Of a stretch of 64,000 nt of DNA, positions 22,950-27,411 are shown one piece after another. This stretch comes from Patescibacteria group bacterium. GTDB taxonomy: Bacteria > Patescibacteriota > Microgenomatia > UBA8517. How positions within the stretch are numbered: the stretch's first letter is position 1; each line of letters starts with the position of its first letter. The position numbers were made by a program, and so were the translations under genes. The stretch covers positions 47,422 through 111,421 of the forward strand of contig JAOAEL010000002.1 of NCBI GenBank assembly GCA_026416845.1, read 5' to 3'. Under the pieces are notes generated by a model. It was not told where the DNA came from, ran no database searches, and saw nothing but the letters and a program-made list of their open reading frames with translations.

Positions 22950-23513
22950 TTACTCTTTTACCCTTTCAACATACTCGCCTGTTCTTGTATCGACTCTTAC
23001 TTTATCTCCTTTTTCCACAAAAAGAGGGACGCGCACGGAAATTCCATTTTCCAAAACTGCAGACTTGTACATATTTGAAGCTGAATTACCCCTGACACCA
23101 GGATCTGTCTCTGCAACTTTTAGAATCACTTTGGGAGGAATATCTACACCCAAAACTTTATCTTCCCAGAGCACAACAGTAACAGTTTCTCCCTCTTTGA
23201 TATAAGGAAGCTCATTTTCCAAAACATCTTTTTGCACTTCCAACTGTTCATAATTTGAAGGATCCATGAACACCACATTTGCACCATCCTGATAAAGGTA
23301 CTGAAGAGTACGTTTAGTTGTTTTTGCTTCTTCAACTTTGACCGAAGAAGAAAAAGTTTTTTCAACAACAGATCCTGAGATTAAATCTCTTGCCAAAACA
23401 CGCACTGTGGCTCCGCCTCTGCCCATTTTTATGAAAGTGTACTTAAGCACTTTGTGCGGTTTGCCATCGTGCAAAAACGCTGTCCCGTTTCTTAAATCAG
23501 AAGCGCTTATCAT
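22950..23513 (-). CDS. efp: Elongation factor P
   Basis: MISASDLRNGTAF...KPHKVL...KMGRGGATVRV aligns to EF-P domain I. 187 aa with a three-domain layout. Confidence 0.9.
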   Translation of the reverse strand: MISASDLRNGTAFLHDGKPHKVLKYTFIKMGRGGATVRVLARDLISGSVVEKTFSSSVKVEEAKTTKRTLQYLYQDGANVVFMDPSNYEQLEVQKDVLENELPYIKEGETVTVVLWEDKVLGVDIPPKVILKVAETDPGVRGNSASNMYKSAVLENGISVRVPLFVEKGDKVRVDTRTGEYVERVKE

Positions 23514-23606
23514 AAAATTTTACCTACCTCAAAGGGTATTTTACTTTAAAAAATCTAAAAATCAAAGCCAGATGCAAAATCCTTGAAATACTTGAATTTT
23601 CAAAAT

Positions 23607-24779
23607 TCACCTGTTGCCCTTTGCCCGATTGTGAGTTTTGCAAAGCATTTGACAATTTTCCATGGTGCTTCCGCCACCTTTGCTCCATGCCGTCACATGA
23701 TCCGCGTCCATTTCCGAAAAATCCCAAATCTTTATTTTGTTTGAATCATTTCCCAGCGTGCAAAGCGGGCAATTAGAAATTCCGTTTGCTTTTGCTTGCT
23801 GAGTTTGTCTTTCATAAACGGTTTTCTTTATAGCATCATCAAATACGCGAACATCAAGAAGGGTAGTGTCTTGCATTCCGCCTAGAATGTACTCAAAAAT
23901 GCCTTTTCTGTTTCTCACATACGGGTCGGCATAAAGTCGGGACACTTCCTTGGAAACTTCTTGTGGATTATAGGAGTTTCCATGATACTCTTCATACATT
24001 CTCCCCCACTCTAACCCGCACATTTCGTCTTTAACATCAATAAAAACCCCTGATACCCAATCGATAACCGTATTAAAGTAAGTTTTAAGCTCATCGATAT
24101 TATCATCATACCTGTGCCTGCTCATATATTCGCTTACATTGCCGCGGCTTACCCAATCTAAAGCAGTGCGCAAAAAATCCTGTCTGTTGACATTGCCTCT
24201 CACATACGCTTTCCATTTATTCACATTAGCATTTTGACTGTTGCTAAATTCCGCTCTCGCCAGAGTTACAAAAGGACCAGAATAAACAGCGTTCAAAAGC
24301 TCCTGCTCGTTAAGCGGCACGCCGGCAATATTTATTGTCTTGAACCATTCTTTTATTTCGCTTTCTGTGCCCTCGCAGATGTAAATGAGAAGTTTGGTAT
24401 CCAAAATTCTTTGTTTTTTGTCAGAGGACATATTATGAAAATATTGCGGATTTCCATGTTCATCAAAAATAGCAAATTTACCGGTAATAAATCGTCCAAG
24501 ACTAGTGATGCGTTGTTGGCCATCCAAAACTTCATACTTATCCTCGGCAACTTTATTAAAATAAATCAAGCCGATTGGGTAACCTTTCAAAACAGACTCG
24601 ACCACCGCCATTTCCTTTTTCCCACCATCCATGCTGGAGTAAATATAATTTCGCTGGTATTCCGGCTGAATTACCAATCTGCCTGACCAACCAAAAAGCC
24701 CCTTGCCTTCAAGCTCGTTATAGACAAAGCCCTCGCAAACTTCTTTGATTGTTATATCTGTGCGAAGTGTGGTGTTCAT
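23607..24779 (-). CDS. DUF262 (ParB-like/GmrS-like) domain protein fused to a C-terminal HNH nuclease
   Basis: N-terminal IQPEYQRNYIY and DGQQRITSL are hallmark DUF262 motifs. The C-terminus carries a CPLC...DHVTAWSKGG...NCQMLCKTHNRAKGN HNH/His-Me finger. Its start overlaps the upstream MTase stop by 4 nt. Confidence 0.75.
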   Translation of the reverse strand: MNTTLRTDITIKEVCEGFVYNELEGKGLFGWSGRLVIQPEYQRNYIYSSMDGGKKEMAVVESVLKGYPIGLIYFNKVAEDKYEVLDGQQRITSLGRFITGKFAIFDEHGNPQYFHNMSSDKKQRILDTKLLIYICEGTESEIKEWFKTINIAGVPLNEQELLNAVYSGPFVTLARAEFSNSQNANVNKWKAYVRGNVNRQDFLRTALDWVSRGNVSEYMSRHRYDDNIDELKTYFNTVIDWVSGVFIDVKDEMCGLEWGRMYEEYHGNSYNPQEVSKEVSRLYADPYVRNRKGIFEYILGGMQDTTLLDVRVFDDAIKKTVYERQTQQAKANGISNCPLCTLGNDSNKIKIWDFSEMDADHVTAWSKGGGSTMENCQMLCKTHNRAKGNR

Positions 24780-25894
24780 AATTTCCTATGCTTTATAAAA
24801 ATTCTTTTAAACAACTCTTTCCCGTTCATAAAAACCCCACGACCATAAATGCCATTTGGATCTTGGTTTACACCACGACTAGATCCCACTATCTCAAACT
24901 GCTCCGGATTGTATTTATCCAAAAAACTAATCGGCACGCCCATTATACCATCATAATCGCTTGGGATAGCCTCTGTGTACGACACCTCTATGGCATCGTA
25001 ATTGTCGTACTTCTGGTAGCACGCGGGATTGTTTTGAACCTTTTTGTTGAACTTTTTGTTTTCTTCCATAGTCATCAGTTTTAGGGGCTGATGTCGCCTG
25101 CCATGGTCAAGGTTGGTGAACCAACAAGAATTCCCTAGCCTTGTATAATTGCCAACATACCCTAATCTGGCAGCTTTTTGTTTGTATTTTTCATCAACTG
25201 GGAATCCTTCAGGAACAGCAAAAACCATATCAACACCATTACCTGTTGCGCCAAGCCATATTTTATTTTGCTTGATAAGGGGAAAAATCTCTTTATAAGT
25301 TATCGCATTCATATTACCGATTATCAAAAACTTTTTGTCGTAATCTATAAGTTGTCTGACATACTCTCTAAAAAGAGAAAACGGCGGATTGGTGACAACA
25401 ATATCTGATTGCTTCAGAAGCTCTATGCATTCCTCGCTTCTGAAATCGCCATCACCTTTTAACGGTTCCCACTCGTTGTGTTTGTTTTCTTTGAGAATTT
25501 TGGCTATGTCTTCCAAATCAAATTGGCCATTTTCATCAACATCGGCAACATCATTGACAATAAATCTATTGGCGGTAACTTTAGGCCTGCCTTTTTGCGG
25601 TGGAAGGGTAGGATCGTCGCCAAATAGGGCAAGCTGAGTATTGGCGACAGGAGATGGTTTATAGCTTGTGGTAATCAACTTTTTAAGCCCAAGTTTTTTA
25701 AAGTTTAAAACAAAGTATTTAAAAAAATTACTTTCAAAGGGATCATCGCAATTGCAGTAAATTACTTTGTCTTTAAAAGCGTCCGGGTTGTATTCAAGAT
25801 AGGCTTCAACCTCCTTTTGGATATCCTGATATTGCGTGTAAAATTCATCGTTTTTGGCTTTTTTTGCTTTGGTCAGATTCGTGTTTGGCATCAA
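24776..25894 (-). CDS. N6-adenine DNA methyltransferase (gamma-class; EcoRI-methylase-like family by motif recollection)
   Basis: Motif IV VVTNPPFS. N-terminal KNDEFYTQ...VIYCNCDDPFESNFFKYF block resembles the EcoRI-methylase-type family. 372 aa. Confidence 0.7.
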   Translation of the reverse strand: MMPNTNLTKAKKAKNDEFYTQYQDIQKEVEAYLEYNPDAFKDKVIYCNCDDPFESNFFKYFVLNFKKLGLKKLITTSYKPSPVANTQLALFGDDPTLPPQKGRPKVTANRFIVNDVADVDENGQFDLEDIAKILKENKHNEWEPLKGDGDFRSEECIELLKQSDIVVTNPPFSLFREYVRQLIDYDKKFLIIGNMNAITYKEIFPLIKQNKIWLGATGNGVDMVFAVPEGFPVDEKYKQKAARLGYVGNYTRLGNSCWFTNLDHGRRHQPLKLMTMEENKKFNKKVQNNPACYQKYDNYDAIEVSYTEAIPSDYDGIMGVPISFLDKYNPEQFEIVGSSRGVNQDPNGIYGRGVFMNGKELFKRIFIKHRKL

Positions 25895-25942
25895 ACAAAA
25901 ATTTAGGCATAGAAAAAATTAGGCATAAAAAAATTTTTCAAG

Positions 25943-26027
25943 TGCCCAGGGCGAGATTTGAACTCGCACAAGATGTTACTCTTACAGGTTTTTGAGACCT
26001 GCGTGTCTACCGTTCCACCACCTGGGC
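25943..26027 (-). tRNA. tRNA-Leu (anticodon CAA), type II with long variable arm
   Basis: Reverse complement GCCCAGGTGGTGGAACGGTAGACACGCAGGTCTCAAAAACCTG-(long V arm)-GCGAGTTCAAATCTCGCCCTGGGCA. 7-bp acceptor stem, anticodon loop CUCAAAA, T-arm GTTCAAATC. CCA is not encoded. Confidence 0.8.
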
Positions 26028-26094: not shown

Positions 26095-27411
26095 TTAAGC
26101 TCTTGCCGTCTCTCTGCTATAAAATTTCACCTGATCACCTTTGAAAAATAGTTTAATGGAAGCAAGAGGCCCGTTTCTATGTTTGGCAACATCAAGCGCT
26201 ATGTTATTCATATTTTCGTCGTCTTCGCGATACAAAAACATCACCACATCAGCATCTTGCTCTATGCTCCCACTCTCTCTAAGATCCGCAAGTTGAGGTT
26301 TTTTCTCCCCCCTGTGTTCCACAGCTCTTGAGAGTTGGGAAAGCGCAAGAACAGGAATTTTAAGTTCCCTTGCCAAATTTTTAAGCCCCTGTGAGATTTC
26401 GCCTACTTCTTGCACACGATTTTCTAAATTCCTGCTTCTGGCAAGTTGCAAATAATCAACTATCAAAAGCTCAAGCCCCTGTTCCACCTGAAGCCTGCGA
26501 GCGCGACTTCGCATCTCAAGTATGGATAATGCCGGAGTATCGTCTATAAAAATAGGAGCGTCATACAATATTCCCATTGCTTCGGATAATTTTGCAAATT
26601 CGTCTTCTGTGAGCCTGCCGGTTTTTAATTTCCAAGAGTCTATCTCCGCATGGGCAACCAAAAGCCTGTCATTAAGCTCTTCCTTGCTCATTTCCAAAGA
26701 AAAAAAACCAACAGGCTTTTTGTTTTTTACTGCCACATAAGAAGCTATATTAAGGGCAAGGGCAGTCTTCCCTACACCCGGTCTTGCCGCAAGAATTATG
26801 AGATTAGAAGGTTGCAATCCTGATAATGTTTTATCCAAATCAGCAAAGCCCGTTGCCACCCCGCGCATTTCTCCGGGATTTTTATAAAGCTCATCCAATC
26901 TGTCAAAACTAACAGTCAAAACATTTTTTATATGCTCAAAACCCTTGGAAGAACTTTGCGTGGATAATGAATAAACTTCAGACTCAGCTTTGTCCAAAAG
27001 CTCAGAAACGCTCATGCTGTCATCTGTGGACATCTCCACAAGCTTGCTTGCGGTTTTTAGAAGAGATCTTTTTATGGCAAAATCCCGAACAATCCTGCCA
27101 TAATGCTCAACGTGAGCGGTTGTGGGAACCTTGTTTGATAAGTCAGTCAAAAATGTTAAACCACCTATCGATTTTAGAAGCTTCTTTTTTTTAAGCCGCT
27201 CAGAAATTGTCAAAACATCAATTGGAATTCTTTCGTCAAAAAGCTCAAGCGCCACAAGGTAAACTTCTTTAAGCCTGCCGTCATAAAAATCATCAGGAGA
27301 CAAAAACTCCGCCACCGCAACAATTGCGTCTTTATCCAAAAGCAAGGACCCAACAACAGACTCCTCTGCTTCCTGAGAATGCGGAGGTATTCGTGGTGAT
27401 TTGTCAGCCAT
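26095..27411 (-). CDS. dnaB: Replicative DNA helicase DnaB
   Basis: N-terminal DnaB domain (PHSQEAEESVVGSLL), Walker A ARPGVGKTALALN and RecA-like C-terminal motifs. 438 aa. Confidence 0.9.
   Translation of the reverse strand: MADKSPRIPPHSQEAEESVVGSLLLDKDAIVAVAEFLSPDDFYDGRLKEVYLVALELFDERIPIDVLTISERLKKKKLLKSIGGLTFLTDLSNKVPTTAHVEHYGRIVRDFAIKRSLLKTASKLVEMSTDDSMSVSELLDKAESEVYSLSTQSSSKGFEHIKNVLTVSFDRLDELYKNPGEMRGVATGFADLDKTLSGLQPSNLIILAARPGVGKTALALNIASYVAVKNKKPVGFFSLEMSKEELNDRLLVAHAEIDSWKLKTGRLTEDEFAKLSEAMGILYDAPIFIDDTPALSILEMRSRARRLQVEQGLELLIVDYLQLARSRNLENRVQEVGEISQGLKNLARELKIPVLALSQLSRAVEHRGEKKPQLADLRESGSIEQDADVVMFLYREDDENMNNIALDVAKHRNGPLASIKLFFKGDQVKFYSRETARA

Follow-up and report, generated by a model that had tools for sequence, protein, structure and literature searches.

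In two reviews, the only systems named with a DUF262 domain are GmrSD, BrxU, SspE, Menshen, Dazbog and PD-T4-2 (PMC10952713; PMC12065111). In this study, we analyzed a stretch of 64,000 nucleotides (nt) from a Patescibacteria group bacterium (assembly GCA_026416845.1, contig JAOAEL010000002.1, positions 47,422 to 111,421 of the forward strand; hereafter the window), in which two overlapping minus-strand genes, positioned between tRNA-Leu(CAA) and efp, encode an EcoRI-family DNA methyltransferase (M, the methylase) and a nuclease (R) joining a DUF262 domain to an HNH finger. A full-text literature search did not find a pair of DUF262-HNH nuclease and EcoRI-family methylase described. That this module, self-contained and horizontally mobile, is a restriction-modification operon of two genes is well supported by the domain identities, the invariant residues of the nucleoside triphosphate (NTP) pocket and the HNH site, the linkage of the two genes, their insertion at this locus, and the models in PADLOC. 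Beyond that identity, the comparative pattern suggests, with a probability that we put at roughly 0.6, an operon in which the methylase would hold the specificity and the nuclease would be a nucleotide-gated generic enzyme, following a logic like that of type III systems. The features of the pair, in window positions and residues of the two proteins, are the following.

24776..25894, minus strand: EcoRI-family N6-adenine DNA methyltransferase (M), 372 amino acids (aa), TTG start
25460..25663, minus strand: var1, variable segment of the methylase between motif I and motif IV, residues 78-145, 9 types of 24-79 aa
25379..25390, minus strand: methylase catalytic motif IV, NPPF, residues 169-172, read from the sequence
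25124..25249, minus strand: var2, hypervariable module of the methylase, residues 216-257, 17 discrete types, the window carrying type 1
24809..24889, minus strand: var3, hypervariable module of the methylase, residues 336-362, 36 types
24776..24779, minus strand: ATGA overlap of the M stop codon with the R start codon, 4 nt, putative translational coupling
23607..24779, minus strand: DUF262(ParB-like)-helical-HNH nuclease (R), 390 aa
24282..24674, minus strand: DUF262/GmrSD_N domain of the nuclease, residues 36-166, Pfam PF03235, E 1.4e-20
24645-24668, minus strand: QPEYQRNY motif, nuclease residues 38-45, read from the sequence
24510-24524, minus strand: DGQQR motif, nuclease residues 86-90, read from the sequence
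23610..23732, minus strand: HNH finger, residues 350-390, Pfam PF01844, E 6.4e-7
23697-23699, minus strand: predicted catalytic His361 of the HNH finger

The finger of the nuclease was found to carry the motif CPLC...DH...N...C..LC..HN at residues 337-384, with C337/C340 and C376/C380 as its zinc cysteines. Pfam detected no DUF1524 (PF07510) in the nuclease, only HNH (PF01844) and HNH_5 being matched there. Across nuclease subfamilies that are 32-47% identical, P39, Q42, R43, D86, G87, R90, Q159, E160, N163, C337 and H361 were invariant, and Q88, Q89, C340, N375 and C380 were invariant or nearly so. Because these residues are invariant at such divergence, selection acts on the nucleotide pocket as well as on the HNH site, and the invariant ParB-like DGQQR pocket suggests nucleotide binding by the nuclease. 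An AlphaFold2 model based on an 80-sequence alignment over two subfamilies had a predicted local distance difference test score (pLDDT) of 87.3 and a predicted template modelling score of 0.70; an earlier AlphaFold model from 12 close homologues (pLDDT 48) was discarded. The closest solved folds to the model were BrxU, which was the best structural match, SspE and DndI. Foldseek further matched ParB CTPase N-domains and the Gme HNH nickase, none of them at E < 0.001, and the DUF262 domain also had a fold match to sulfiredoxin. A profile search of PDB sequences agreed (Gme HNH, 4h9d; EcoKMcrA, 6ghc), and a plain sequence search of PDB with either protein returned nothing useful. Pfam and the conserved residues agree with a preliminary description of this DNA, made from its sequence alone, that had reported a fusion of DUF262 to a canonical HNH finger instead of DUF1524, and the nuclease motifs are intact.

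The pair is both abundant and tightly linked. In Patescibacteria, Bacteroidota, Planctomycetota, Verrucomicrobiota, Armatimonadota and other groups, the nuclease has more than 8000 homologues of 73-79% identity; when 50%-identity representatives were searched exhaustively, 448 nuclease clusters came up (E ≤ 1e-30), and a collection with one genome per species held homologues at no fewer than 528 places, one archaeon included. An EcoRI-family methylase gene lay upstream on the same strand in 80 of 84 loci; in the other four, the sequence ahead of the nuclease is shorter than 210 nt. An EcoRI_methylase gene also always precedes the nuclease in a second subfamily, whose members are about 360 aa long and about 40% identical. 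A repeat homologue search with a mixed alignment recovered the dominant subfamily alone. The linkage of M and R is thus obligatory across phyla and nuclease subfamilies. It extends to mobile elements: 44 plasmid records carried a full-length copy, and the order M then R was observed on plasmids of seven genera, i.e., Moraxella, Enterococcus, Pediococcus, Rhodococcus, Lactiplantibacillus, Variovorax and Macrococcoides.

Two variants of this arrangement were recorded. First, a natural fusion of M and R (P0178, L176:3001-5067) was found as one open reading frame (ORF) of 688 aa, which comprises an EcoRI-family methylase and a DUF262-HNH part, lies on a contig of 24% G+C that needs genetic code 4, and has FPSF rather than NPPF as motif IV; its methylase part may serve in DNA recognition alone. 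Second, plasmid 2 of Variovorax sp. PBL-E5 (L088:1252-5089) carries two methylases of different var2 and var3, followed by a single DUF262-HNH gene. A tyrosine recombinase gene adjoins the latter locus.

Other plasmid and gene contexts were also recorded. On the resistance plasmids pBN83-1 of E. faecium (L002) and pMiCAN82a of Macrococcoides canis (L178), the pair stands alongside optrA and erm(A), or mef(F), and an identical-scoring copy was present on ten E. faecium megaplasmids; the pair may help to stabilise these plasmids. In a few carriers, unrelated genes were located between M and R, namely those for an AAA_15/OLD-like ATPase with DUF2130, for AlbA_2-HATPase_c_4 with Bro-N, and for RhuM (L006:2898-5999, L017:2940-5999, L042:4935-5984). 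Passenger genes embedded in this way typify type I restriction-modification operons. EcoRI-family methylases also occurred with other neighbours: on the Psychrobacter plasmid pA3H10 (L179:1997-5317) one is fused to a RelB/DinJ-like N-terminus beside a phospholipase-D family gene, and at L180:2249-3957 and L087:2594-4576 they lie beside small ORFs that are uncharacterised. Hence, several restriction partners share this methylase family.

Both proteins are already covered by catalogue models. The nuclease matched the PADLOC model REase_II PDLC03418 (E 4.8e-88, residues 9-389 against 8-371 of 372), which is nearer to the 360-aa nuclease subfamily (scores up to 498 bits), and the methylase matched MTase_II PDLC03297 (E 5.1e-114). 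NCBIfam had no model for either protein, and the NCBI product names are 'DUF262 domain-containing protein' and 'adenine-specific methyltransferase EcoRI family protein'. The pair is a member of a very large family that is catalogued yet uncharacterised. These full-length type II models and the upstream methylase in all 80 testable loci bear out the earlier suggestions that the pair is a restriction or defence module and recurs elsewhere; its presentation as a non-canonical candidate system has to be given up, since PADLOC calls a type II restriction endonuclease (REase) and a type II methylase here.

The methylase matched the Pfam family EcoRI_methylase (PF13651) over the full length of the profile (E 1.6e-129), which, together with NPPF, agrees with its preliminary assignment as EcoRI-methylase-like. 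In a set of 73 nuclease-linked methylases, NPPF was conserved to at least 97%, and it was also present in M.EcoRI, whose reference sequence was taken from a genuine EcoRI plasmid carrying R.EcoRI and M.EcoRI. M.EcoRI and the window methylase were 45% identical over the full length (E 3e-88), and M.EcoRI has 60 of the 62 positions for which conservation in the nuclease-linked set reaches at least 97%. The methylase core had a mean identity of 69%, and the three variable segments lay outside it. Pairwise identities of var2 were bimodal, with almost no values of 0.4-0.5, and each type was well conserved across distant hosts. Reshuffling of var3 was independent of var2, as 61 var2 × var3 combinations occurred among 74 proteins. 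Methylases from an E. faecium megaplasmid, from a Pediococcus plasmid and from four metagenomic loci were of the same var2 type as M.EcoRI. The var2 and var3 types of the window methylase differ from those of M.EcoRI, and because of the difference in var2 its target is probably a sequence other than GAATTC. Tyr204 of M.EcoRI, which lies in var2, was reportedly placed beside the target base by photocrosslinking.

In contrast to these modules, the nuclease is constant. Within the close subfamily, mean identity was 74% for the nucleases versus 55% for whole methylases, and pairs of nucleases were hardly more similar when their methylases had the same var2 type (0.745) than when the types differed (0.735). 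At the best nuclease column, within-type minus between-type identity did not exceed 0.21 for var2 and was at most 0.18 for var3, and one var2 type could be shared by both nuclease subfamilies (L170/L009, L088/L052, L173/L065). Sliding-window covariation between the nuclease and var2 gave zero correlation; modest correlations were seen only between the methylase core and nuclease residues 41-70 and 341-390, which may be plain phylogenetic signal. As no nuclease position was found to track the module types of var2 or var3, the data would argue against independent target recognition by the nuclease if the modules have the specificity role that we infer. A positive control was provided by a Staphylococcus rostri methylase whose partner is an EcoRI-family REase, 63% identical to R.EcoRI: this methylase was 82% identical to M.EcoRI in var2 and 85% in var3, and just 69% in the core. 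Therefore, the modules are constant beside a partner of fixed sequence specificity and vary freely beside DUF262-HNH. The combination of modular methylase and invariant nuclease, a comparative pattern new to this analysis, gives concrete and testable grounds for thinking that the family works otherwise than type IIP enzymes.

On this basis we favor the following mechanism. The EcoRI-family methylase would place N6-methyladenine (m6A) at its target sequence in host DNA, and the DUF262-helical-HNH protein would cleave DNA that lacks the mark. The target sequence would not be read by the nuclease; specificity would reside in the exchangeable methylase modules var2 and var3, and the generic nuclease, gated by nucleotide binding, would be licensed or recruited by the methylase at unmethylated sites, with its ParB-like domain acting as a nucleotide switch, as in BrxU and SspE. 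The discrete and recombining nature of var2 and var3, combined with the indifference of the nuclease to their type, points to specificity in the methylase, and the fact that the pairing stays exclusive to one methylase family across many module types speaks for co-adaptation between the two proteins. The overlapping M-then-R order without a controller gene, the P0178 fusion and the Variovorax locus with two methylases and one nuclease are further points for this proposal. A more far-reaching version, which we hold only tentatively, is that the pair may constitute a distinct kind of restriction-modification filed under type II, in which a monomeric EcoRI-like methylase, its recognition modules exchangeable in many combinations, would be the sole sequence reader; the generic ParB-like nuclease under its direction would act as a nucleotide switch and might clamp or slide on DNA in the manner of ParB, so that new specificities would arise by module swap with the nuclease unchanged. 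The evidence points in the direction of the first alternative in the preliminary description, a methylation-sensitive nuclease using DUF262 as an NTP-dependent module; its second alternative, in which the nuclease reads a different modification, gained nothing from the data.

Several points weigh against specificity held by the methylase. The specificity role of var2 and var3 would follow from their discrete, recombining pattern and a single positive control, and the two segments could be surface loops that diversify for another reason. M.EcoRI works with a fully independent REase, so a role as specificity subunit is not required of its family. The fusion P0178 is known from one metagenomic contig only and has a degenerate motif IV. 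The PADLOC label of type II REase may reflect a characterised (type IIP) enzyme. Finally, k-mer avoidance, examined in the window together with 0.9 Mb from carrier loci, was of the generic palindrome kind only (GGCC, CTAG, GATC and others) and gave no target signal for this system.

The strongest competing explanation is a type IIP enzyme of the classical kind, in which DUF262-HNH would independently recognise the fixed site of the methylase (for example GAATTC or a close relative) and the variable segments would be loops without a role in specificity. We regard this as possible but rather unlikely. The type II labels of both proteins in PADLOC and the resemblance to M.EcoRI, with 60 of 62 near-invariant positions in common, speak for it, and a fixed specificity would account for the strong conservation of the nuclease. 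Nevertheless, the variable segments are discrete, conserved within a type across phyla, and recombine independently, which is how specificity modules behave; their conservation exceeds that of the core precisely when they are paired with an EcoRI-type REase; the invariant DGQQR/QR nucleotide pocket would have no role in a classical enzyme; and GAATTC is not avoided in the window, where it occurred at an observed-to-expected ratio (O/E) of 0.93 without depletion.

A weaker explanation, and an improbable one in our judgement, is sequence-independent sensing of the self-mark as in SspE, whereby DUF262 would read m6A in any context, host marks would trigger nucleotide hydrolysis and switch off or tune the nuclease, and unmarked DNA would be nicked or cut non-specifically without contact between M and R. 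The self-modification-coupled DUF262 nucleases SspE and DndI are among the closest folds, the account of SspE in PMC10952713 has its NTPase triggered by the modification, and such sensing would also explain the indifference of the nuclease to the methylase module type. Under this explanation any m6A methylase should do, yet the partner belongs to the EcoRI family in every testable locus and in the distant subfamily. The same two nucleases bear on the preliminary view that coupling of DUF262 to a methylase is mechanistically odd: its premise of DUF262 nucleases as enzymes that attack modified DNA does not hold in general, since SspE and DndI work with self-modification, and the oddness is mostly resolved by this precedent, the module looking ordinary as a restriction-modification insertion. 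A type IV-like, GmrSD-like nuclease attacking foreign modified DNA, with a methylase whose job is unrelated or merely protective, is very improbable in spite of the DUF262 domain and BrxU as best structural match, for GmrSD-family enzymes are solitary and carry DUF1524, the protein here has a PF01844 HNH finger and never occurs without the methylase, and obligatory co-inheritance, gene overlap and fusion indicate a single functional unit.

The genomic position of the operon was assessed with 80 relatives, collected by a metagenome scan with the window DnaB (62-73% identity). The elements that border the pair in the window are as follows.

26095-27411: DnaB gene (Pfam label taken from the same gene in the relative L089)
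25942..26027, minus strand: tRNA-Leu(CAA), called by ARAGORN, left boundary of the insertion and outside the system itself
25895..25941, minus strand: leader from the tRNA to the methylase start, 47 nt, read from the sequence
25919-25927 and 25903-25911, minus strand: two exact 9-nt direct repeats TATGCCTAA in the leader, 16 nt apart
23514..23606, minus strand: spacer from the nuclease stop to the efp start, right boundary of the insertion
22950-23513: EF-P gene (efp; Pfam label taken from the same gene in L089)

In most of the relatives whose contigs extend far enough, tRNA-Leu(CAA) follows dnaB, and efp was detected just past the tRNA in about half of the 80 loci. The gap from tRNA to efp is often about 0.05-0.4 kb in the relatives (e.g. 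L124, L145, L148, L160, L121) and amounts to 2429 nt in the window. Neither the methylase nor the nuclease was found at the dnaB-tRNA-efp site in any of the 80 relatives, and the near-identical genome GCA_025057695.1 carries the same insertion. The module is therefore an insertion between tRNA-Leu and efp, as the preliminary description had suggested. Its further claim of a classic integrated island at a tRNA did not survive: the marks of a tRNA-targeted integrative island are missing, as there is no integrase, the tRNA-to-efp interval comprising just two genes, and no att-type direct repeat of the tRNA 3' end. With these features absent and an unremarkable G+C content, the module is a bare insert of two genes, a frequent form among restriction-modification pairs.

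The coordinates, the ATGA overlap, the efp and dnaB flanks and the tRNA orientation were re-examined with ORF calls, ARAGORN and the sequence itself, and all hold. The 3' end of tRNA-Leu(CAA) points toward the methylase start, 47 nt away. The true start of M is probably the ATG at 25891, the codon after TTG, because a 97%-identical relative encodes a 371-aa product. The leader repeats TATGCCTAA are a possible candidate promoter or operator of the operon; a promoter and terminator scan, leader included, gave no signal above chance. In most relatives (L090-L169), the tRNA and dnaB are on opposite strands; they share a strand in the window and about ten other relatives, several of them among the closest by DnaB identity, which suggests a small local inversion within the clade. 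Several short palindromes are much rarer in the window than a Markov model predicts (GGCC, O/E 0.40; ACGT, 0.52; TCGA, 0.57; GAGCTC, 0 observed versus 8.9 expected). They suggest that this genome has, or once had, restriction systems of other kinds, and none was tied to the M-R module.

Among the plasmid records examined, the most frequent partner of the M.EcoRI family is not EcoRI-like. The range of the pair covers hundreds of species, from Patescibacteria to Bacteroidota, archaea and enterococcal resistance plasmids. If the nuclease is indeed generic and directed by the methylase, the pair would be a very abundant, compact and re-targetable two-protein system; the origin of new specificities without lethal intermediates would be explained, a ParB-type nucleotide switch would join the known restriction motors, and thousands of 'type II' annotations would need rereading. 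If the type IIP explanation is right, the locus would be a routine restriction-modification insertion.

Finally, the module can be set beside the described systems. First, it resembles type III Mod/Res in logic, with exchangeable specificity modules on a conserved methylase core and a conserved nucleotide-dependent nuclease without any, as well as in the overlapping mod-then-res gene order and the nucleotide switch, although each functional likeness is conditional on the mechanism proposed above. Unlike it, Res joins an SF2 helicase to PD-(D/E)XK and Mod belongs to another methylase class (beta); there is no homology, Pfam finding just GmrSD_N plus HNH and EcoRI_methylase in the window pair, and an M-R complex here is hypothetical. 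Second, the window nuclease shares the N-terminal DUF262/GmrSD_N domain with DGQQR with the type IV enzymes GmrSD and BrxU, but it has 390 aa instead of about 580-600 aa, carries HNH PF01844 instead of DUF1524, and is always encoded with a methylase, presumably sparing modified DNA. Third, SspE (SspABCD-SspE) and DndI (DndBCDE-DndI) are likewise DUF262 nucleases working with self-modification; their mark is backbone sulphur laid down by a multi-gene pathway, whereas here it would be N6-methyladenine placed by one methylase, and the nuclease domain and protein size differ. Neither dnd nor ssp genes turned up in the inspected loci, the window neighbours being the methylase, efp, the tRNA and dnaB. 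Fourth, as in classical type IIP systems, the genes of a cognate methylase and endonuclease are adjacent (4-nt overlap; 80 of 80 testable loci). With EcoRI itself the module shares a clear homologue of M.EcoRI and the character of a two-gene mobile module, often on small plasmids; it differs in that R.EcoRI is a PD-(D/E)XK enzyme unrelated to the DUF262-HNH nuclease, the gene order is R then M in EcoRI and M then R here, the methylase has other variable modules, and the nuclease has a nucleotide-binding domain.

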